Shown here: piece after piece, positions 24,214 through 53,861 of the stretch
Layout of the letters: every line of letters starts with the position of its first letter
How positions within the stretch are numbered: the stretch's first letter is position 1
Assembly: GCA_035501655.1 (NCBI GenBank)
Contig: DATJVU010000033.1
Span: 298,770 to 362,769 of the forward strand
Source of the DNA: Candidatus Solibacter sp.
GTDB taxonomy: Bacteria; Acidobacteriota; Terriglobia; Terriglobales; Acidobacteriaceae
Direction: 5' to 3'
Length of the DNA: 64,000 nucleotides
The notes under the pieces: generated by a model
Told to the model about the DNA's origin: nothing
Database searches by the model: none
Seen by the model: only the letters and a program-made list of their open reading frames with translations
Translations under genes and position numbers: made by a program

Positions 24214-24393
24214 GATTATCTGTACCGTTTTCCACAGTTAAGAAGGCTTGAGCAAGTCAAGAATCTAACAGGAAAATGGCCTGAAATCACCCTCAAATGT
24301 CAAGAGGGCACTTCAATAGCACGTCTTCGAGGGTTCATCTTAGGAACAAGGGCGGGAACGCTCATACTTGTGGGCGGGGGGGAGCCGACCTTC

Positions 24394-24603
24394 GGGTTTC
24401 GATTTCACTTCCCACAACGAAAATGTGGGTGTCTCGCTCTTGCGTTTTTCAAGGGCGGGCACGATGCTGCTTGTGCCACGAGATTTCGGCGGATTCAAAA
24501 CCTTGCGCTGTCGGCGGCACTGTACCCACGTCTCGCAAATTCGGCGAGACGTGGGGCACCCACATCACTTTTGTTCTCGCGAAATCGAAGACTGGGCTGG
24601 GGC
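24394..24603 (+). repeat. about 210-bp dispersed repeat, copy 1 (TGTGGGTG..CTCTTGCGTTTTT..GGGCGGGCACGATG..GATTCAAAA..TGGGGCACCCAC..GAAATCGAAG)
   Basis: Direct repeat of 25668-25897 (which has one extra internal segment). The two bracket the CDS at 24872-25645. Confidence 0.8.
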
Positions 24604-24663
24604 TCAGCTTGCCCGCACAACGAAAGCCGCGTTGTTTGGGCCATCCGTCCTACGGCGGCGAAA

Positions 24664-24693
24664 GACGCGGGCGGGGGCGCCCGCGCCACATCT
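24664..24693 (+). repeat. REP-like hairpin GACGCGGGCG-GGGG-CGCCCGCGCCACATCT
   Basis: 30/30 identical to 26193-26222. The GCGGGCG/CGCCCGC stem is the same as in the hairpins flanking the RAYT gene. Confidence 0.85.
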
Positions 24694-24793
24694 TGCGTTC
24701 ACTTATCTGCACAGCGAGAATCGCTTGTGTAGGACACTTGTCTCCGGGCAGGATTTCTCAGCGTTTTCCACGGCATTGCAAAATCATTCAGTC

Positions 24794-24822
24794 TTGACGG
24801 TGAGCGGGGGTGAAAGAATAAT
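24794..24822 (+). promoter_or_regulatory. sigma70-like promoter candidate (TTGACG-17 nt-AATAAT)
   Basis: Hexamers at 24794-24799 and 24817-24822. Supports the downstream ATG 24872 (GAGG 8 nt upstream) as the real start. Confidence 0.35.
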
Positions 24823-24871
24823 GTCCGCGTCCAGCCTGAAACATTCCCGCTACTTCCGCGAGGTAAGAATT

Positions 24872-25645
24872 ATGCCGCAGACCCACTCATCGAAAACCGA
24901 TCCAAGCCAAACTTATTCGAGCCAGACCGATCCGAACTACGCTGATTCGAGCCAGACTTATTCGAACCAAGTCAATCCGAAGCGACACGCTTTAAGTTTG
25001 AGTGATCATTTGAACAAGCACCTGCTGGCTTATATGGCTACGGCTAGTGCGGCTGGAGTGAGCATGCTGGCGATGACTCAGCCGGCGGAGGCTACAGTTG
25101 TATATACGCCTGCGCACCGGACTATCGTTTCCGGGGCCCATCTTGATTTAAATGGCGACGGGATTCCCGACTTTACTTTTCAGGCGAATCGCTATATCTG
25201 CGGCACCTGTGGCTACTTTGACGTATTCGCCCCCAAGCCCAATCGAGTCATGAGCTACGGGAGCCCTCAGGCGGCGGGAGTGACGGTCGGACCTCCGGGC
25301 GATAACTTTAAGGGCCATGGGGGCGAGATGGTCAATTGGTGTACCTGTTCGGGAAACGGAGCCACCGGGGGCCCGTGGGTGGGAATTCAGAATGGATACA
25401 TGGGTCTGGAATTCAATATTAAAGGGACGATGCATTTTGGCTGGGCACGTTTTTCTGTGACCGACCAGGGAGCCATCACGCTGACCGGCTTTGCGTACGA
25501 GACGGTTGCGCTCAAACCCATTGTGACTGGAGATACCGGAGGCACGGAGAGCGTCGATTCGTTGGGGCCGGCGGCGGGGACAGAACTTCCACGGTTCGGA
25601 CTTGGACATCTGGCGCTTGGCGCGGTGGGGAAGTTGGGGCGGTAG
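24872..25645 (+). CDS. hypothetical secreted/anchored protein with Q/S/T-rich N-terminal repeats
   Basis: ORF 24368..25645, trimmed because the 5' part is repeat DNA. Hydrophobic LLAYMATASAAGVSMLAMTQPAEA segment. No family recognised. Confidence 0.5.
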   Translation: MPQTHSSKTDPSQTYSSQTDPNYADSSQTYSNQVNPKRHALSLSDHLNKHLLAYMATASAAGVSMLAMTQPAEATVVYTPAHRTIVSGAHLDLNGDGIPDFTFQANRYICGTCGYFDVFAPKPNRVMSYGSPQAAGVTVGPPGDNFKGHGGEMVNWCTCSGNGATGGPWVGIQNGYMGLEFNIKGTMHFGWARFSVTDQGAITLTGFAYETVALKPIVTGDTGGTESVDSLGPAAGTELPRFGLGHLALGAVGKLGR

Positions 25646-25667
25646 GGCCGAGTGATTCGGCCTTTGC

Positions 25668-25897
25668 GGTTTGATTTTTCTTTCCAGTGACATATATGTG
25701 GGTGCCCCGCTCTTGCGTTTTTGGCAAGAGCCTGCCCTGAGCTTGTCGAAGGGGCGGGCACGATGATGCTTGTGGCGGTAGATTTCTGCGGATTCAAAAT
25801 CCCACGCTGTCGGCAGCACTGTTCCCAGCCTTCGCAAAAAACGCGAAGACTGGGGCACCCACTTCATCTTTGTTTCATCGAAATCGAAGGCTGGCCG
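25668..25897 (+). repeat. about 230-bp dispersed repeat, copy 2
   Basis: Direct repeat of 24394-24603. Confidence 0.8.
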
Positions 25898-25995
25898 TCC
25901 CTCTCGTCGTTTGACCCTTCTTTTCTTGCGACTGTAAACTCGAAAGAGAGCACTCAGCATTCAGCATTCATTTGCCAGTGTGAAAGGCAACAGCA

Positions 25996-26021
25996 GGTCC
26001 CTCGACTTCGCTCGGGATGAC
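25996..26021 (-). repeat. GTCAT-family repeat fragment (GTCATCCCGAGCGAAGTCGAGGGACC on the minus strand)
   Basis: Seen just upstream of valS. Confidence 0.6.
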
Positions 26022-26078
26022 AATGCTGGAGGACCTTTCAACTGGCTGATTGCCGACGGCTGAGTGCTGACTGCTTCT

Positions 26079-28895
26079 ATGCCCCACGAACTCCCAAAAG
26101 CTTATGAGCCGGGCGCGATTGAAGCGCGCTGGGCTGAGTACTGGATCAAAGAGAAACTTTTTTCCGTCGCTACGCCTCCGGCTGACGCCGGGGACGCGGG
26201 CGGGGGCGCCCGCGCCACATCTGCGTCCGCACAACCTGTGTTTTCGCTGCTGCTGCCGCCGCCGAATGTGACTGGCAATCTGCATATGGGGCACATGTTC
26301 GAGCAGACACAGATGGACATTATTGTGCGCTGGCATCGGATGCGGGGATTTTTGACGTTGTGGCTTCCGGGCACCGACCATGCGGGCATTGCGACGCAAT
26401 TGATGGTGGAGCGGCAACTGGCGTCGGAAGGCAAGAAGCGCCGCGACCTGGGGCGCGAGAAATTTATTGAGCGCGTGTGGGAGTGGAAGAAGAAGTACGG
26501 CGGAAATATCACCGACCAGATGAAGCGGCTGGGCGCGTCGGTCGACTGGGATCGCGAATATTTCACGATGGATGAAAACTTGTCGCGGGCGGTGCGCGAA
26601 GTTTTTGTCCGGCTGTATGAAGAAGGGCTGATCTATCGCGGGAAGTACATCGTGAACTGGTGCCCGCGCTGCGAGACGGCGATCTCCGATCTCGAAGTGA
26701 AGCATGAGGATGTGCCGGGGAAGCTGTGGGAGATTCGTTATCCCGTGATCGGGACGCCGGCGGATAAGCCAGAGTTTATTACTGTCGCTACCACGCGGCC
26801 GGAGACGATGCTGGGCGATACGGCTATCGCGGTGAATATAAGAGACGAGCGCTACACGCATCTGCACGGCAAGAAAGTTTTGCTGCCGCTGATGGAGCGG
26901 GAGATTCCGATCATCACCGACGAACTGGCGCAGCCGGAGTTTGGCACGGGCGCGGTGAAGGTGACGCCGGCGCATGATCCCAATGACTTTCAGGCTGGAC
27001 TGCGCAACAACCTGCCGCAGATTGAAGTGATGGACGAGAACGCCCGCATGAATCAGAACGCGGGCAAGTATGCCGGGCTGGATCGCTACGAAGCTCGCAA
27101 GCAGGTGCTCGCCGATTTGGAGGCAGGGAATTTTTTAGTTGGGACGAAAGATCACACGCTGCCACTCGGCAAGTGCGATCGCTGCGCCACGGTGGTTGAG
27201 CCGCGGCTGTCGACGCAGTGGTTTATCAAGATTGCGCCCATGGCGAAACGCGCCGCCGACGCGGTCCGCAGCGGCGAGATTACTATCGCGCCAGAAAACA
27301 ATCAGCAAATTTATCTGAACTGGATGGACAACATCCACGACTGGTGCATCTCCCGCCAACTCTGGTGGGGACATCGGGTGCCGGCTTGGCATTGTGCTTG
27401 TGGGGAGATTGTGGTGGCGCGCGAGGCTCCGGCTGCGTGTGGGAAGTGCGGTGGGGCGGTGGAGCAGGATGCGGATGTGCTGGATACGTGGTTTTCTTCG
27501 GGGTTGTTGCCGTTCACTACTTTGGGGTGGCCGGAGAAGACTCGCGATCTGGAGGTTTTTTATCCGACGGCGCTGATGATTACCGGGTTTGACATTTTGT
27601 TTTTCTGGCTGGCGCGGATGATCATGTTCGGCTGCCATTTTATGCGGGGGCATGAGCAGGATCCGGCGATTAAGGCGTCTAGCGGATGGAGTGAGCGCAA
27701 GGATGACGCGGTGCCGTTTCGGCGGGTCTACATTCATGCTTTGGTGCGGGATGCGGACCGGCAGAAGATGTCGAAGACTAAGGGGAATGTGGTCGATCCG
27801 CTGGACATTATTGCTCGCTTTGGAACCGACGCGACTCGGTTTACGCTTGCGGCTATGGCTGCGCCGGGAACCGATATTGCGTTTAACGAGAGTCGCACGG
27901 ATGGGTATCGTGCTTTTGCTAACAAGATTTGGAATGCGGCGCGGTTCATGTTTATGAATGTGGACCGGATCGCGGACCGATCTCCGTGGACTCCGATTAA
28001 GGCAGATTCCGAAATCCTGCATGTTGGTGTTGGTGGTGTTAAGACGGTTGCTCTCGAAGACCGCTGGATTCTTTCGCGATTCAACCGCGTTGCAGCCGAC
28101 GTGAACGATGCGTTGGCGACTTATCGTTTTCACGAAGCGGCGAATCGCATCTACGATTTTTTCTGGGGCGAATTTTGCGACTGGTACTTAGAGTTGATCA
28201 AGCCGCGGCTTATGAACGAAGGGGGCTCTGCCAGGGCTGAAGCTAGCGTTGCGTGTTCTAATCTCGTCAACTTGTTTGAGTCATCGCTGCGCCTTCTGCA
28301 CCCGATCATGCCGTTTATTACGGAAGAAATCTGGCATGCGATGCAAGAGAATAAAACTTCAATCAAGTCCATCGCGTTGACGGCTTATCCGCAGGCCGAT
28401 GAAAAGCAATTTGATCTGGCCGCTGAGACCGAGATGGCGATTTTGCAGGATCTGATCGTGAGCGTTCGGAACTTGCGCGCGGAATTGAAAGTCGAAACCA
28501 AGGCCAAGGTGCCGATCGAAATTTTCGCACACGAGCCCGCGATTCGCAGCCTGATTGAGCAGAACCGCGGCGCGGTGGAGCGGCTAGCTAACGTTGAAAG
28601 TATCGCGTTTGCAGGGGGATCGTTGACCAGCAAGGCTGGCGCGCGCAGCACGGCGCGCTTCGACGTGCATGTAATCTATGAGCGCAAGATTGATGTTGCG
28701 GCTGAGTGCGAGCGGTTGAAGAAAGAGCTGGAGAGAATTGAGAAGGGGATGACGAACGGGCAGAAGCAGCTTAGCAACGAAGGCTTTTTGGCAAAGGCTC
28801 CGGCTGCGATTGTGGAGAACCTGCGCAAGCAGCATCAGGAGTTGGTTGTTTTGCAGGAGAAAACTTTGAGCAAGATGAAGGAGTTGGGTTGCTGA
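26079..28895 (+). CDS. valS: valine--tRNA ligase
   Basis: ORF 26064..28895. [13 protein letters not shown] (HIGH), KMSKTKGN (KMSKS) and a C-terminal coiled coil. ATG 26079 preferred. Confidence 0.97.
26193..26222 (+). repeat. REP-like hairpin embedded in frame in valS (encodes [10 protein letters not shown])
   Basis: Identical 30-mer to the intergenic 24664-24693. Lies in the variable N-terminal linker before PPPNVTG. Confidence 0.8.
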
Positions 28896-46303: not shown

Positions 46304-47653
46304 CTAAGCGCAGAGTTCTTTGACTGCATCGCGAAACACTCTTGTGTGGCGGTCTACATCTTCATTCTCGGTTTGTGGCGACATTAGCGCCATGTTGTGA
46401 AACGGAGTCAGCAGAATTCCGCGGTTCATGGCATACAGGTGCATGAAACGCTCCAGCTCAAAATCCATCGCGTCGTGCGCCTGCTGGCCGTTCACCGGTT
46501 CAGGTCCGAACATGTATTCGGCGCGGCATCCCAGGCGCGTCACATGCCAGGGTAATTCCGCTTCCGCGATTGCCTGCGCTACTCCGGCGGTCCAGCGCTC
46601 CGCCATCGGGATCATGCGGTCGAACGCCTCTTTCGTCAGCACCTTGGACAAAGTCGCGCGCATCGCTGCCAGTGAGAGCGCATTTCCCGCCAGCGTTCCG
46701 CCAATGCCGCCGACGTCGCAGTTCTCTAGCTCTTGCTTCGCTGCGATGCGGTCGGCTACTTCTTGCGAGAAACCATATGCGGCTCCGGGGATTCCTGCGC
46801 CGATGGCTTTGCCGAAGACGATGACGTCGGCCTCAAGACTTTCTGCACGTGTGAATCCGCCGGGACCAGCGCAGATGGTGTGCGTCTCGTCGATGATGAG
46901 CAGTGTTCCACGCTCGCGCGTGATTTCGCGTAGCGCTTTGTGATATCCCGGCTGCGGGTGGACGATCCCTACGTTGGTCATCGCGGGCTCGGCCAGGACG
47001 CAGGCCACGTCGCCCGAGACGAGTGCCGCTTCCAGCGCGTCAAGGTCGTTGAACTCGACGACCTTCGTCGTCTGCGCCGGATTCACCGGCGGTCCAATAT
47101 TTCCCGGCCGGGGCCCGGCGCCATCCGGACCGATTGTGATGAACGTCTCATCCACCGTGCCGTGATAGCACCAGTTGAAGACCAGAATCTTCGGCCGTCC
47201 GGTTATTTGCCGCGCCAGCCGGATCGAGAAGCGATTCGCGTCCGTTGCCGTCAGAGCGAATTGCCAGTATGGCAGATTGAACCGCGTCTGCAATTCTTCG
47301 GCGACTACGATGGCGTCTTCTCCGGGCAGCATGAGCGTGATGCCGCGCCGCGACTGCTCCTCCACTGCTTTGACGGTGGCGAACGGGGAGTGGCCCGTCA
47401 TTGCTCCGGTGTCGCCGAGACAGAAATCGATGTAGCGGATGCCGTCGACGTCGAAAAAGTGCGCGCCTTGCGCCTCGCGCACGAATGGAGGGAATGCCCC
47501 GGCCCACTTCACCATCCAGTTCATGGGGACGCCCGCCAGCAGGGACTTCCGGGCGCGGTGGAACAGCGCCTTCGACTTCGGCCGCTCGTCGATGAACTTC
47601 TTCTGCTCGCGCTGCATGAGCGACTGCAGGCGGGAGCGATCGATGGATTTCAT
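46304..47653 (-). CDS. class-III (HemL-like) aminotransferase
   Basis: ORF 46304..47761 trimmed to ATG 47653. LIIDETHT, FGKAIGAGIP. Second GSA-aminomutase-like gene in the window. Confidence 0.85.
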   Translation of the reverse strand: MKSIDRSRLQSLMQREQKKFIDERPKSKALFHRARKSLLAGVPMNWMVKWAGAFPPFVREAQGAHFFDVDGIRYIDFCLGDTGAMTGHSPFATVKAVEEQSRRGITLMLPGEDAIVVAEELQTRFNLPYWQFALTATDANRFSIRLARQITGRPKILVFNWCYHGTVDETFITIGPDGAGPRPGNIGPPVNPAQTTKVVEFNDLDALEAALVSGDVACVLAEPAMTNVGIVHPQPGYHKALREITRERGTLLIIDETHTICAGPGGFTRAESLEADVIVFGKAIGAGIPGAAYGFSQEVADRIAAKQELENCDVGGIGGTLAGNALSLAAMRATLSKVLTKEAFDRMIPMAERWTAGVAQAIAEAELPWHVTRLGCRAEYMFGPEPVNGQQAHDAMDFELERFMHLYAMNRGILLTPFHNMALMSPQTENEDVDRHTRVFRDAVKELCA

Positions 47654-47678: not shown

Positions 47679-48234
47679 TGTGGTGGCGGGCGACTCGCCC
47701 GCGCAGTCAAGCAGCAGCAACCAACGCAGCGTCCCACCAAAGCCAGCGACATAAGTCCCAACGGTCAGCCAGTCGGGCCCGCACCGGATTCTGCAAAATG
47801 TAATCGACTTTCCCTCGCAAGCACTCGCATCCGCGCAGCACATGATCAAATGACTCGTCCTGCCAGACACGGCCGGTGCGTCCGAGAGCTTCGTTAATGC
47901 GATGCGCCGATTCGCTCTTGATGGTTCGAGTGATCTCGGGAATCGAGATCAGGCCTTTCGCGTCGCTAAGAGGGAGACAAATCAAGTGCACGTGATCGGG
48001 CATGACCACGGCCGCGTATAGGGTGTATTTGCGCCCGTTGGCCCTGAGGCAGGATTCTAAGGCCAGGGTTCGGGCGACGTCTGGCAGATGCCACCTTTGC
48101 CAAGTTGAATATGTGATGAATAGAGATCGATTTTCTTTTTGATAGTGCGGAAGATAGCGGCGGTAGTGATACTTTCTCTGCACTCAAAGCAGAGTAGCAC
48201 CGAAAGGCGCGCGGGCGAGTCGCCCGCGCCCACA
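47679..48234 (-). mobile_element. RAYT unit: REP-associated tyrosine transposase gene flanked by inverted REP hairpins
   Basis: GCGCGGGCGAGTCGCCCGC occurs on the plus strand at 48209-48227 and on the minus strand at 47686-47704, bracketing the gene. Confidence 0.8.
47707..48183 (-). CDS. REP-associated tyrosine transposase (IS200/IS605 Y1-like, RAYT)
   Basis: 158 aa. YRRYLPHY, HUH motif PDHVHLICLP, WQDESFDHVLR, catalytic-Tyr region VDYILQNPVRARLA. GTG start. Confidence 0.85.
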   Translation of the reverse strand: MQRKYHYRRYLPHYQKENRSLFITYSTWQRWHLPDVARTLALESCLRANGRKYTLYAAVVMPDHVHLICLPLSDAKGLISIPEITRTIKSESAHRINEALGRTGRVWQDESFDHVLRGCECLRGKVDYILQNPVRARLADRWDLCRWLWWDAALVAAA

Positions 48235-48268
48235 AGGTTCAGCTTGGTTTCCAAAGTGGGAAATTGCT

Positions 48269-49696
48269 CTACAGGATGTACCGGCTCAGATCCTGGTCCT
48301 TCACGATATCCGTCAGCATCTTGCGCACGTAATCCGCGTCCACGGTGACGGCCTGCCCCTTTTTTTCGGGCGCATCAAAGCTCAATTCGTCGAGGACGCG
48401 CTCCATGATCGTGTGGAGGCGGCGCGCGCCGATGTTCTCGGTGCTTTCGTTCACGCGAAAGGCGAAGTGCGCAATCTCATCCAGCGCCTCCGTCGTGAAT
48501 TCAAGTTTCACGCCTTCGGTTTCGAGCAGCGCCGTGTACTGCTTCACCAGCGATGACTTCGGCTCGGTGAGGATGCGGACAAAATCTTCCATCGTCAGCG
48601 ATTGCAACTCGACGCGAATCGGGAATCGCCCTTGCAGTTCCGGAATCAGATCGCTCGGCTTGGAGACGTGAAACGCGCCTGCGGCGACAAACAAGATATG
48701 ATCGGTGCGGACCATGCCGTAGCGCGTGTTGACCGTTGTCCCTTCCACGATCGGCAGAATGTCGCGCTGCACGCCTTCGCGCGAAACATCCGGACCATGG
48801 CCGCCTTCGCGCCCGGCGATCTTGTCGATCTCGTCGAGAAACACGATCCCTGAATTTTCCACGCGCTCAATCGCGACGCGGGTAACCTGATCCATATCGA
48901 TCAGCCGCTGCTCTTCTTCCTGGATCAGATATTCGAAGGCCTCGCTCACTTTCATCTTCCGCTTCTTGGTGCGCTGCCCGAAGATGTTCGGCAACATGTC
49001 TTTGATGTTGACGTCCATCTCCTCAACGCCCTGATTGGTGAGAATTTCGAATGAGGGGAAGTTCTTCTCGCGCACATCGATCTCGACGGTCCGATCGTCC
49101 AGCTTGCCTTCGCGTAACTGCTGACGCAGCTTCTCGCGCGTGCGGTTGGAAGAAGAAGACGATTCTGCCAGCGCCGTTCCGCCGTCGATCACCACTCCGC
49201 CTGCGGTTGCAGCCGGATCGGGACGCGGCGGAGGCGACGGAGGCAGCAAAATATCGAGTAGGCGCTCTTCGGCATTTAACTCAGCCTTGTCGGCCACGTC
49301 TTCCAGCTTTTCCTCGCGCACATTGTCGATGGCGATCTCCACCAGATCGCGCACCATCGACTCGACGTCGCGCCCCACGTATCCGACCTCGGTAAACTTC
49401 GACGCCTCGACTTTTAAGAACGGAGAATTCGCCAGCTTCGCCAGCCGGCGCGCTATTTCGGTTTTGCCCACACCCGTGGGCCCGATCATGATGATGTTCT
49501 TGGGGATGATTTCTTCGGCGAGATCGGGCGCCAGCTTCTGCCGCCGCATGCGATTGCGGAGAGCGATCGCTACCGCGCGCTTGGCGTCTTTTTGTCCAAT
49601 GACGTGCTTGTCCAGCTCGGCAACGATTTCGCGCGGAGTCAGTTCGTCCAGCGCGAGCTGTTCTTCTTCGGCGGTAGAGGGCAGATAGATAGCCAT
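48269..49696 (-). CDS. hslU: ATP-dependent protease ATPase subunit HslU
   Basis: 475 aa. [17 protein letters not shown], Walker [26 protein letters not shown]. Confidence 0.97.
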
Positions 49697-49703
49697 AGAA
49701 ATT

Positions 49704-49789
49704 CAGTGGTCAGTGGCCGGTGGTCAGTGGTCAGTCATCAGCTCGGAAGTTCGTTGCTGACCACTGATCACTGGCCACCAGCCACTCAC
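49704..49789. repeat. about 86-bp imperfect palindrome of CAGTGGTCAGTGG-type repeats between hslV and hslU
   Basis: Left CAGTGGTCAGTGGCCGGTGGTCAGTGGTCAG, right CTGACCACTGATCACTGGCCACCAGCCACTCAC. Related motifs at 6194-6222 and 29205-29228. Confidence 0.75.
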
Positions 49790-52646: not shown

Positions 52647-53861
52647 ATGCGGAAGTTCTGGGACAATTCGAGCGGCGGAGTGGGGCGTGCAGACGAGACG
52701 TCCACCGCTCCACGTCTTGTTCCCGCGACGCTGCAGATCGGCGGTGTGACTATCTCGCCCGCGACCGTGCTCGCGCCTATGGCCGGCGTCACCGACACGG
52801 TCTTTCGCCGCTTCATCCGCAACCTGGGTGGATGCGGGCTGATCATGACCGAGTTCACCTCGGCCGATGGCGTCCTGCGCAAAAAAGACCAGAAGGCGAA
52901 GCGCTACCTGCATTTCTATGAGGACGAGCATCCGATCTCGGCTCAACTCTTCGGCAGCGATCCCTTTGTGATGGCGGAAGCCGCGCGGATGGTCGAGGGA
53001 CTCGGCTTCGATCTTGTCGACCTGAATCTCGGGTGTCCTGCGAAAAAAGTGGTGAAGTGCAATGGAGGCTCAGGCCTGCTGCGCGACCTGCCGGCGATCG
53101 GAAAGATCTTCGAGTCAGTGCGGGCAGCGGTAAAGATTCCGTTTACGGTCAAGTTCCGCGCGGGCTGGAGCGATAGCGAAATTGTCTGCGTGGAATTGGC
53201 GCGCATGGCCGAATCCTGCGGACTGGCTGCGGTGGCATTGCATGCGCGTACGCGCGAGCAAGGCTATAGCGGCGCTGCGCGGTGGGAATGGATCGCAGCC
53301 GTAAAAGATGCGGTGCAGATTCCGGTCATCGGCAACGGCGACATTCGCTCGCCGGAAGACGCTTGCGCTATGGTGACGCAGACCGGTTGCGATGCGGTGA
53401 TGATTGGGCGCATGGCGCCGTCGAATCCATGGATTTTTCGGCAGATTGAGCAGTATTGCTCGGGCATGGCCGCTGGACATGTAGGCACAGCCGCCCTCAG
53501 CTGTCCGGGCCGCACACCCGATTCGTTTCAGCCGAATGCCCTGCAGACATCGGGATCAGTCGAGCTTTGCTCGACCGGACAGCCGGGGGCGGCTGTCCCT
53601 ACATCAGAACCTTCCTACGATCATCCCTCCGAGTTCGATCGCTACGAGATGATCCGCACGTACTTCAAGATGCTGATTGAAGAAGAGTTGCCCGACGCGG
53701 TGGGCAAGATGAAGCAGTTCGCCTCGTGGTTTACCCATGGCGTGCCGGGCGGCGCCGGGTTGCGCAAAGAAATCTATGAATCGAAGAGTGCGCCCGAGAT
53801 TCTTTCGCGCGTGGAAGACTTCTTCGAGGCGCGCATCGGAGCACTCGCGTTGCAGCCGTAA
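52647..53861 (+). CDS. tRNA-dihydrouridine synthase (Dus family) carrying a 42-codon palindromic insertion
   Basis: ORF 52611..53861. LAPMAGVTD, DLNLGCPAKKV, HARTREQ and GNGDI motifs. ATG 52647. Confidence 0.9.
   Translation: MRKFWDNSSGGVGRADETSTAPRLVPATLQIGGVTISPATVLAPMAGVTDTVFRRFIRNLGGCGLIMTEFTSADGVLRKKDQKAKRYLHFYEDEHPISAQLFGSDPFVMAEAARMVEGLGFDLVDLNLGCPAKKVVKCNGGSGLLRDLPAIGKIFESVRAAVKIPFTVKFRAGWSDSEIVCVELARMAESCGLAAVALHARTREQGYSGAARWEWIAAVKDAVQIPVIGNGDIRSPEDACAMVTQTGCDAVMIGRMAPSNPWIFRQIEQYCSGMAAGHVGTAALSCPGRTPDSFQPNALQTSGSVELCSTGQPGAAVPTSEPSYDHPSEFDRYEMIRTYFKMLIEEELPDAVGKMKQFASWFTHGVPGGAGLRKEIYESKSAPEILSRVEDFFEARIGALALQP
53479..53604. repeat. 126-bp element with 30-bp terminal inverted repeats (27/30), in frame inside the Dus gene
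   Basis: ATGTAGGCACAGCCGCCCTCAGCTGTCCGG ... CCGGACAGCCGGGGGCGGCTGTCCCTACAT. The right arm contains the hairpin GGACAGCCG-GGGG-CGGCTGTCC. Confidence 0.75.

Follow-up and report, generated by a model that had tools for sequence, protein, structure and literature searches.

What is the short reading frame that lies between hslU and a class-III aminotransferase gene in contig DATJVU010000033.1 of a Candidatus Solibacter sp. assembly, and how is it related to the GC-rich hairpins found around it and elsewhere in the same genome? The window, by which the whole 64,000-nucleotide stretch analysed here is meant (positions 298,770 to 362,769 of the contig), carries at this place a gene for a REP-associated tyrosine transposase (RAYT, or TnpA_REP) with a repetitive extragenic palindromic (REP) sequence on each side. 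The locus is very probably a REPtron, that is, a single-copy, vertically inherited RAYT of the HUH-Y1 fold between two copies of its cognate REP that are inverted with respect to each other. This REP is a unit of 25–26 nt, composed of a 5'-GTGG foot and a GC-rich hairpin of 7–9 bp, GCGGGCG / loop / CGCCCGC. The host is a peat-soil acidobacterium. The parts of the unit are the following:

47707 to 48183, minus strand: RAYT / TnpA_REP gene, 158 aa, GTG start, TGA stop; HUH motif H64-V-H66 and predicted catalytic tyrosine Y128 in YILQNP.
48209 to 48233, minus strand: upstream REP, A-type, on the gene strand 5'-GTGG-GCGCGGGCG-ACT-CGCCCGCGC; 9-bp stem, foot away from the gene, 25 nt before the GTG.
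47680 to 47704, plus strand: downstream REP, A-type, inverted, 5'-GTGG-TG-GCGGGCG-ACT-CGCCCGC-GC; 2 nt past the RAYT stop, with 26 nt left to the aminotransferase ATG.

The genome that holds the window (G000; a draft assembly of 6.0 Mb in 41 contigs, 58% GC) was compared with a genus sample of 24 genomes (Terriglobales, Candidatus Sulfotelmatobacter-like) and with an outgroup of 16 genomes from other genera of the same order. Relatives' genomes are designated G0xx, homologous loci L0xx or L1xx, and positions in G000 are given as contig and coordinate (Cn:position). A-type refers to the GCGGGCG stem with an AGT or ACT loop, and B-type to the same stem with a GGGG or RGGG loop (CCCC or CCCY on the other strand).

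The identity of the protein was addressed by motif, profile and fold. The open reading frame (ORF) carries PDHVHL, VWQDESFDH and YILQNP, and it bears out the 158-aa HUH/Y1 protein that a first-pass annotation of the window had recognised from HVHL, WQDESFDH and YILQNP. It passed the NCBIfam equivalog for REP-associated tyrosine transposases (NF047646) narrowly, with 81.1 bits against a cut-off of 80, and failed the IS200 transposase model (transpos_IS200), with 19 bits against a cut-off of 55; the annotation had left room for an ordinary IS200-like protein, and the two models decide for the RAYT. Pfam Y1_Tnp was matched with 23.9 bits (cut-off 23). The best sequence match in the PDB is 4er8, the TnpA_REP of E. 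coli, with which the HUH and Y-x3-NP motifs align, YILQNP to YIYINP. An AlphaFold (AF2) model based on an alignment of 56 homologues reached a pLDDT of 89 and a pTM of 0.84, and by Foldseek its top PDB fold was again 4er8_A (E 5e-7, TM 0.61), followed by the TnpA proteins of ISDra2, IS200 and IS608. Fifteen residues are invariant over the 56 homologues, including D63, H64, H66, Y128 and N132; the window RAYT keeps all 15, and its predicted catalytic helix, Y128-ILQ-N132-P133, has the form Y-x3-NP. The assignment of the protein as a RAYT, and not as an IS200 transposase, is thus supported.

The closest homologues come from Terriglobales / Candidatus Sulfotelmatobacter metagenome-assembled genomes (MAGs), among them G015, the SbA1 peat MAG, and the subfamily (43–72% identity) extends to MAGs of Thermodesulfobacteriota, Planctomycetota, Chloroflexota and WOR-3. 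Inside the closest RAYT clade dN/dS was 0.05–0.10, a range taken only from within-clade pairs with measurable dS, dS being saturated between the window RAYT and its nearest homologues. There is one gene of this subfamily in G000.

The two REPs share the 19-mer GCGCGGGCGAGTCGCCCGC, located at 48209-48227 on the plus strand and, as its exact reverse complement, at 47686-47704. The annotation had described these identical inverted 19-mers correctly, and its spacings need correction: the distance to the GTG is 25 nt instead of 28, and that from the stop to the downstream copy is 2 nt instead of 3–4. In the upstream REP the 9-bp stem GCGCGGGCG/CGCCCGCGC directly abuts CCAC. On the gene strand the downstream REP reads GCGCGGGCG-AGT-CGCCCGC-CA-CCAC-3', with a 7-bp stem and the GTGG two bases off. 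The two copies are inverted with respect to each other, with both GTGG feet pointing outward. As single-stranded DNA (ssDNA), the window hairpins fold with -11 to -15 kcal/mol, the upstream REP with -15.4 kcal/mol (z -3.8) and the downstream REP with -11.3 kcal/mol; for the other three window hairpins z is just -1.5 to -2.1 in their GC-rich context. In an automatic scan of 108 homologous RAYT loci from five phyla, about 92 had GT[AG]G-foot hairpins next to the gene, and the foot-outward arrangement of the window RAYT (UP+/DN-) was the commonest among the 108 loci.

Beyond the flanks, GCGGGCG-N1-8-CGCCCGC has four matches in the 64-kb window against 0.08 expected. The two that stand apart from the RAYT confirm the related GGGG-loop hairpins, with the tail GCCACAT, that the first-pass annotation had noticed elsewhere in the window:

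24666 to 24691, plus strand: B-type REP copy, C-GCGGGCG-GGGG-CGCCCGC-GCCACAT, in a 1.85-kb stretch without recognisable genes and rich in other short repeats.
26195 to 26220, plus strand: B-type REP copy in valS, GCGGGCG-GGGG-CGCCCGC-GCCACAT, in frame, within a 39-nt (13-codon) insertion.

Across G000 the exact stem was found 67 times, and the stem with a CCACA tail 62 times, while the reversed control pattern gave 0. In an oriented alignment conservation was confined to the 26-nt unit C-GCGGGCG-loop-CGCCCGC-GCCACAT, with background level on either side. A scan of G000 for perfect hairpins with a GT[AG]G foot returned four families (GCGGGCG 65, ACAGCCG 21, ACGGGCG 16 and GCGGACG 7 copies), and the reversed-genome control yielded scattered singletons only. 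The GCGGGCG family is present in 22 of the 24 genus genomes, at 1–79 copies each, and in none of the 16 outgroup genomes. The GCGGGCG hairpin is therefore a real dispersed family; an origin by chance or as terminators was rejected because the control counts are zero, the 26-nt boundaries sharp and the GTGG foot constant. Recurrence of the hairpin elsewhere in the genome, on which the annotation had made its proposal depend, was found with 62–65 copies in G000, and the BIME-like (bacterial interspersed mosaic element) pairing that it had proposed to look for was not the rule: copies in G000 are solitary, apart from one inverted doublet (C40:119037/119135, gap 80) among 62 and the pair around the RAYT. 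G019 has many such doublets.

These counts also bear on a conventional explanation, in which the unit would be an ordinary autonomous IS200/IS605 insertion sequence whose subterminal hairpins resemble the other hairpins by coincidence. The Pfam Y1_Tnp match and the IS200/IS605 TnpA proteins as next-best folds are in its favour, but it is highly improbable and was rejected on the model scores, the single copy and the identical inverted ends. The IS200 equivalog falls far short of its cut-off, the gene-bearing unit occurs once whereas the hairpin alone occurs more than 60 times, and both ends have the same sequence, inverted and with GT[AG]G feet, rather than dissimilar subterminal hairpins. Moreover, no tnpB is present, and the position of the unit is common to G015.

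Which hairpins would belong to this REPtron was approached through the RAYT phylogeny. In G000 the major subtype has the loop RGGG and the tail GCCACAT (39 exact copies), and the minor one the loop AGT and the tail GCCCACAC (10 exact copies, including both at the RAYT). Hairpin stem type and RAYT clade go together in a maximum-likelihood tree, on which the stem labels change 21 times, as against 58 times on average after shuffling; kin share labels in this comparison. The window RAYT falls in clade A, together with G015 (74% identity), L029, L030, L031 and L033, and these five closest homologues with flanks (54–74% identity) all have the GCGGGCG stem with an ACT or ACCT loop. It is safe to take the AGT-loop subtype as the cognate REP of the window RAYT. 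REPs with the GCGGGCG stem and an RGGG/CCCY loop, often as doublets, flank a separate clade B (L016, L022, L024, L075, L102), which has 99/100 support, occurs in G017, G018 and three MAGs, and is sister to clades with GCGGGCA and xCGGACA hairpins. A tblastn search of G000 with four clade B proteins found no clade B RAYT; the best match was the window gene itself, at 44–52% identity. A fragment at C38:345636 (38–39% identity over 42–46 aa) was rejected as a clade B RAYT, being a C-terminal piece of about 50 residues with an internal TGA and not specifically B-like. The proposal of the first-pass annotation, that this RAYT mobilises the GCGGGCG hairpins, thus stands for the AGT-loop subtype, whose loops are shared by the flanks of the closest homologues, and is not established for the GGGG-loop subtype, which has its own clade elsewhere.

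Several observations weigh against the REPtron reading. The NCBIfam cut-off is exceeded by just 1 bit and that of Pfam by 0.9 bit. The loop found at the RAYT occurs in just 10 of about 65 GCGGGCG copies, and a RAYT clade of its own goes with the dominant GGGG loop in G017 and G018. Nor does the abundance of REPs in the genus follow the presence of the matching clade: G019 has 76 B-type copies with neither clade A nor clade B, G016 has 9 A-type copies without clade A, and G004 has 14 B-type copies and zero RAYT matches. In addition, REP orientation showed no association with GC skew (26 vs 36, p = 0.4) or, in G000, with gene-strand bias. The null result on skew gives no support to a replication-fork ssDNA bias, yet is compatible with one in a draft genome of weak skew.

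The GGGG-loop subtype, four-fold commoner and sharing foot and stem, may or may not be a substrate of the window RAYT. Either specificity is loose, foot and stem being shared, or REPs outlive their transposases. The second option can be put in a specific form: the window RAYT would serve AGT-loop REPs only, and the GGGG-loop REPs, to which both other window copies belong, would have been spread by a clade B RAYT since lost, and would now be relics or used by the host. This is a serious possibility, although it falls somewhat short of an even chance. The well-supported clade B, standing apart from clade A, the lack of its gene in G000 and the many genus genomes that have B-type REPs without clade B all agree with it, as do the 21 D-type and 7 E-type REPs of G000, whose cognate clades are likewise missing from that genome. 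However, A- and B-type REPs share the GTGG foot and the whole 7-bp stem and differ only in the loop and one spacer base, and no difference is seen over 24 nt among 23 of the B-type copies in G000. At least one B-type copy, that in valS, is missing from all 13 relatives aligned, which fits activity in a lineage whose only candidate enzyme is of clade A, and a clade B gene may simply be missing from draft assemblies.

More doubtful, though conceivable, is that specificity is loose or sites are recycled throughout the genus, so that one RAYT of the subfamily may have any hairpin with a GT[AG]G foot as its substrate, and REPs already in place may be preferred targets for a swap of type. Such behaviour would explain several REP types (A, B, D, E) in one genome with one matching RAYT clade, five REP types at one codon-level site of an aconitase-family gene in five species, and three unrelated RAYT lineages directly downstream of hslU in different species.

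The B-type copy at 26195-26220 had been listed by the first-pass annotation as an ordinary dispersed hairpin, a description that does not hold for it, as it lies in frame in valS and is not extragenic. The host ORF is identified as ValRS by Pfam tRNA-synt_1 (4e-135), its frame is open across the REP, and the REP stands about 20 residues before HMGH. The 39-nt insertion is missing from the 13 genus relatives aligned. When codon scores were screened and the ORFs running across the REPs inspected, no fewer than 16 other copies were found to be in frame in long genes that are plainly real, so that in total at least 17 of 66 GCGGGCG REPs, about a quarter, are in frame inside genes. Apart from valS, the genes were named by eye from the sequence: xanthine-dehydrogenase-like, S9-peptidase-like, PBP-like, MnmE, UvrD, aconitase-family, iPGM, KpsF-like, GltX, LarC-like, portal-like, MutS, homoserine dehydrogenase (a doublet), LolC/E-like and DAG-kinase-like. 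The in-frame copies in G000 are located at:

C2:42132, C2:115676, C8:27577, C10:77732, C10:124348, C19:21601, C23:391350, C30:65110.
C33:82697, C35:63227, C38:474296, C39:575296, C40:119037/119135, C40:266543, C40:337670, and 26195-26220 of the window.

Among AGT-loop copies away from the RAYT, five of eight are intragenic. REPs as a whole are depleted in coding sequence, with 24% flagged against 52% of random positions in a codon-score test. A count of 46/66 REPs inside genes, obtained from the longest ORF with the first start codon, was an artefact of over-extended 5' ends and was replaced by the codon-score tests and protein inspection.

The copies in valS, mutS and the aconitase-family gene are missing at the orthologous site in most relatives. 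At the aconitase-family site (C19:21601 in G000; orthologues L160-L173), an A-type REP is found in G000, a GCGGGCA type in G009, a CTCC-loop GCGGGCG type in G006, a GCGGCCG type in G011 and another palindrome in G003, while six genomes have the site empty; the mutS site is variable in much the same manner. This suggests repeated insertion at existing REPs, or their replacement. In the window, a doublet at 53479-53604 lies in frame in dusB and is of D-type, GTAG-GGACAGCCG-CCCY-CGGCTGTCC; in relatives the D-type REP flanks a RAYT clade of the same subfamily, a clade that G000 does not have.

By analogy with E. coli TnpA_REP and the TnpA of IS200/IS605, the window RAYT would bind the folded REP hairpin on ssDNA and cut beside the GTGG foot through Y128, with H64 and H66 holding the metal. 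The cut strand would be rejoined elsewhere, giving solitary REPs between genes, and insertions in frame would settle in tolerant loops of genes. The enzyme may still be active in this lineage.

The history of the locus was read from its neighbours, which are:

48269 to 49696, minus strand: hslU, upstream neighbour; Pfam AAA_2 and ClpB_D2-small; C-terminus 92–98% identical across the genus.
46304 to 47653, minus strand: class-III aminotransferase gene, downstream neighbour; Pfam Aminotran_3 (3.9e-38); ATG at 47653, the start conserved in relatives.

The genes hslV, hslU, RAYT and aminotransferase are co-directional. The 54 nt that the annotation had given as the distance to the aminotransferase ATG is correct, counted from the RAYT stop to 47653, and the foot of the REP lies 26 nt from that ATG. 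A sequence scan detected no sigma-70-like promoter or intrinsic terminator around the RAYT unit, and the effect of the unit on aminotransferase expression that the annotation had suggested is plausible. No fewer than eight genomes of the genus have the aminotransferase gene directly after hslU, across a spacer of about 90 nt, most of which the REPtron replaces in G000. In relatives this empty spacer (L117-L122, L128, L134, L140) is almost wholly a palindrome, about 70 nt long and built of CACAGAGG/GGACAC-type words, which resembles the word-array palindrome of the hslV-hslU spacer of the window (49704-49789).

Four RAYT genes in G000 exceed the NCBIfam cut-off, namely the window gene and three distant ones, and the genome also holds two RAYT fragments. 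The distant genes are:

C21:71352-71753: RAYT, NF047646 125 bits.
C31:124449-124844: RAYT, NF047646 121 bits.
C10:423631-424029: RAYT, NF047646 103 bits.

They are 29–36% identical to the window RAYT, each with its own unrelated hairpin repeats; among these repeats are CCGGGAAGGGTGCGACTTCCAGTCGCACC, GACGCGGCCCTGAAGGGCCGCTCTTCCACGG and GGGTGCCCCACCCTTGTCTCGCG.

In G015 hslU is followed by the RAYT orthologue, 74% identical and accompanied by the same REPs, and then by a different gene, and G046 retains at the same place a degenerate REP with the first 29 or so RAYT codons (MQRKYEYRPNLPQ...). Because of this orthologue and this relic, the A-type unit is, judging from the sequence comparison, old at the hslU site. 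A RAYT of another family, 81% identical to the C21 gene of G000, follows hslU in G016, and fragments of a C10-like RAYT do so in G022. Three unrelated RAYT lineages (A-type, C21-like and C10-like) are accordingly seen right after hslU, at L130 (G015), L125 (G016) and L131 (G022), with the A-type relic at L126 (G046). The site downstream of hslU seems prone to receive RAYTs.

A further possibility is that the RAYT has been fully domesticated and that the REPs are no longer moved, the gene being kept for a host function and the REPs serving as RNA or DNA structures such as transcript-end hairpins or protein-binding sites. Purifying selection, the single copy and a position after hslU conserved in three species are in line with this, and so is the persistence of REP families without cognate RAYTs; RAYTs have also been described as housekeeping-like by Bertels and others (Bertels et al. 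2017, as summarised in PMC6006769). Domestication is nevertheless unlikely, in view of lineage-specific insertions within essential genes and of catalytic residues that are intact. That the REP type at one and the same intragenic site varies from species to species argues for continuing turnover. The reading of the locus as a REPtron is retained.

In comparison with known systems, the window REPtron is genuine but ordinary, its type being already known. The reference is the E. coli REPtron, TnpA_REP (a RAYT, PDB 4ER8) with its REP/BIME sequences (Nunvar 2010; Ton-Hoang 2012; Messing 2012, as cited in PMC6006769 and PMC3733652). Both systems have a single-copy HUH-Y1 gene, inverted REP flanks, a GC-rich hairpin with a 5' GT[AG]G foot at its base and dispersed REPs, and 4ER8 is the best sequence and fold match of the window RAYT. 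However, identity is only 26%, the foot is GTGG where E. coli has GTAG, and the stems are short and perfect (7–9 bp, no bulge). G000 has about 65 copies as against hundreds in E. coli, nearly all of them solitary rather than in BIME or REPIN (paired REP) doublets, and about a quarter are intragenic.

Within class 2 of TnpA_Y1, the motifs DHVH / WQ / YILQNP fit exactly the signature of subclass 2.7 described by Quentin and others, [ND]HVH / WQ / YI[LR][NQ]NP (Quentin et al. 2018, PMC6006769, Table 1). Members of that subclass have about 213 aa, long REPs and mostly cyanobacterial hosts (PMC6006769), whereas the window protein has 158 aa and stems of 7–9 bp, in a comparison made by motif table. 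In size and in its short REP hairpins the window RAYT is closer to subclass 2.5 (Bertels group 3, Pseudomonas/Xanthomonas), from which it differs in motifs, DH[LF]H and YI[VI]ANP being those of that subclass (PMC6006769). In the Pseudomonas REPIN-RAYT system the replicating unit is an inverted doublet (Bertels & Rainey 2011, PMC3116915). The genus shares with it one RAYT clade per REP type, vertical RAYT inheritance and several RAYT/REP systems per genome, but differs in the rarity of doublets in G000 and in how commonly a REP type lacks its matching RAYT clade.

Di Nocera and others reported intragenic REPs in frame, notably in repair genes including the UvrD type (Di Nocera et al. 2013, PMC3733652), as is also seen here, and GTGG variants of the GTAG foot are on record (PMC3733652). 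The Acidobacteria that they examined had TIR-flanked (terminal inverted repeat) 'TIRYTs', not canonical foot-plus-hairpin REPtrons (PMC3733652), whereas the canonical type is abundant in Terriglobales MAGs. In the survey of Quentin and others, Acidobacteria are named only for class 3, with CnGA-foot structures (PMC6006769), and the supplementary text contains no Acidobacteria names. Canonical foot-plus-hairpin REPtrons are thereby extended to Terriglobales Acidobacteriota, abundant peat and soil bacteria, in a phylum for which earlier surveys had only atypical (TIR-flanked or class 3) forms. The genus furnishes a dense natural series: no fewer than seven hairpin types that each go with one RAYT clade, REP families that outlast the genes cognate to them or exceed these in number, and many in-frame insertions in essential genes (valS, gltX, mutS, uvrD and mnmE). 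The series could be used for probing RAYT specificity and the tolerance of proteins for REP-encoded peptides. For annotation, the lesson is that such hairpins are not to be presumed extragenic or terminators.

Two further repeat features were observed in the window, the first of them beside the RAYT:

48249 to 48262, no strand assigned: palindrome TTCCCACTTTGGAA, after the hslU stop and before the upstream REP; candidate regulatory site.

Of 102 RAYT genes of the subfamily (loci L002-L104), 34 have a TTCCC-N5-6-GG(G)AA palindrome of this kind upstream, against 5 expected and a shuffle maximum of 12, at fixed distances of -75 to -80 (about -77) or -130 to -137 (about -133). The palindrome also precedes the RAYT of the other family in G016, is enriched genome-wide in G000 (126 vs 47) and is missing from the empty hslU-aminotransferase spacers of relatives. 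It travels with RAYT genes of the subfamily and may be an operator or promoter element. The second feature is the stretch at 24214-26078, 1.85 kb between a dcm-type methylase gene and valS with no Pfam match, of which segments at about 24400-24580, 25697-25894 and 25990-26040 recur at many sites, both in G000 and in relatives; the stretch has the appearance of a cluster of further repeat families.

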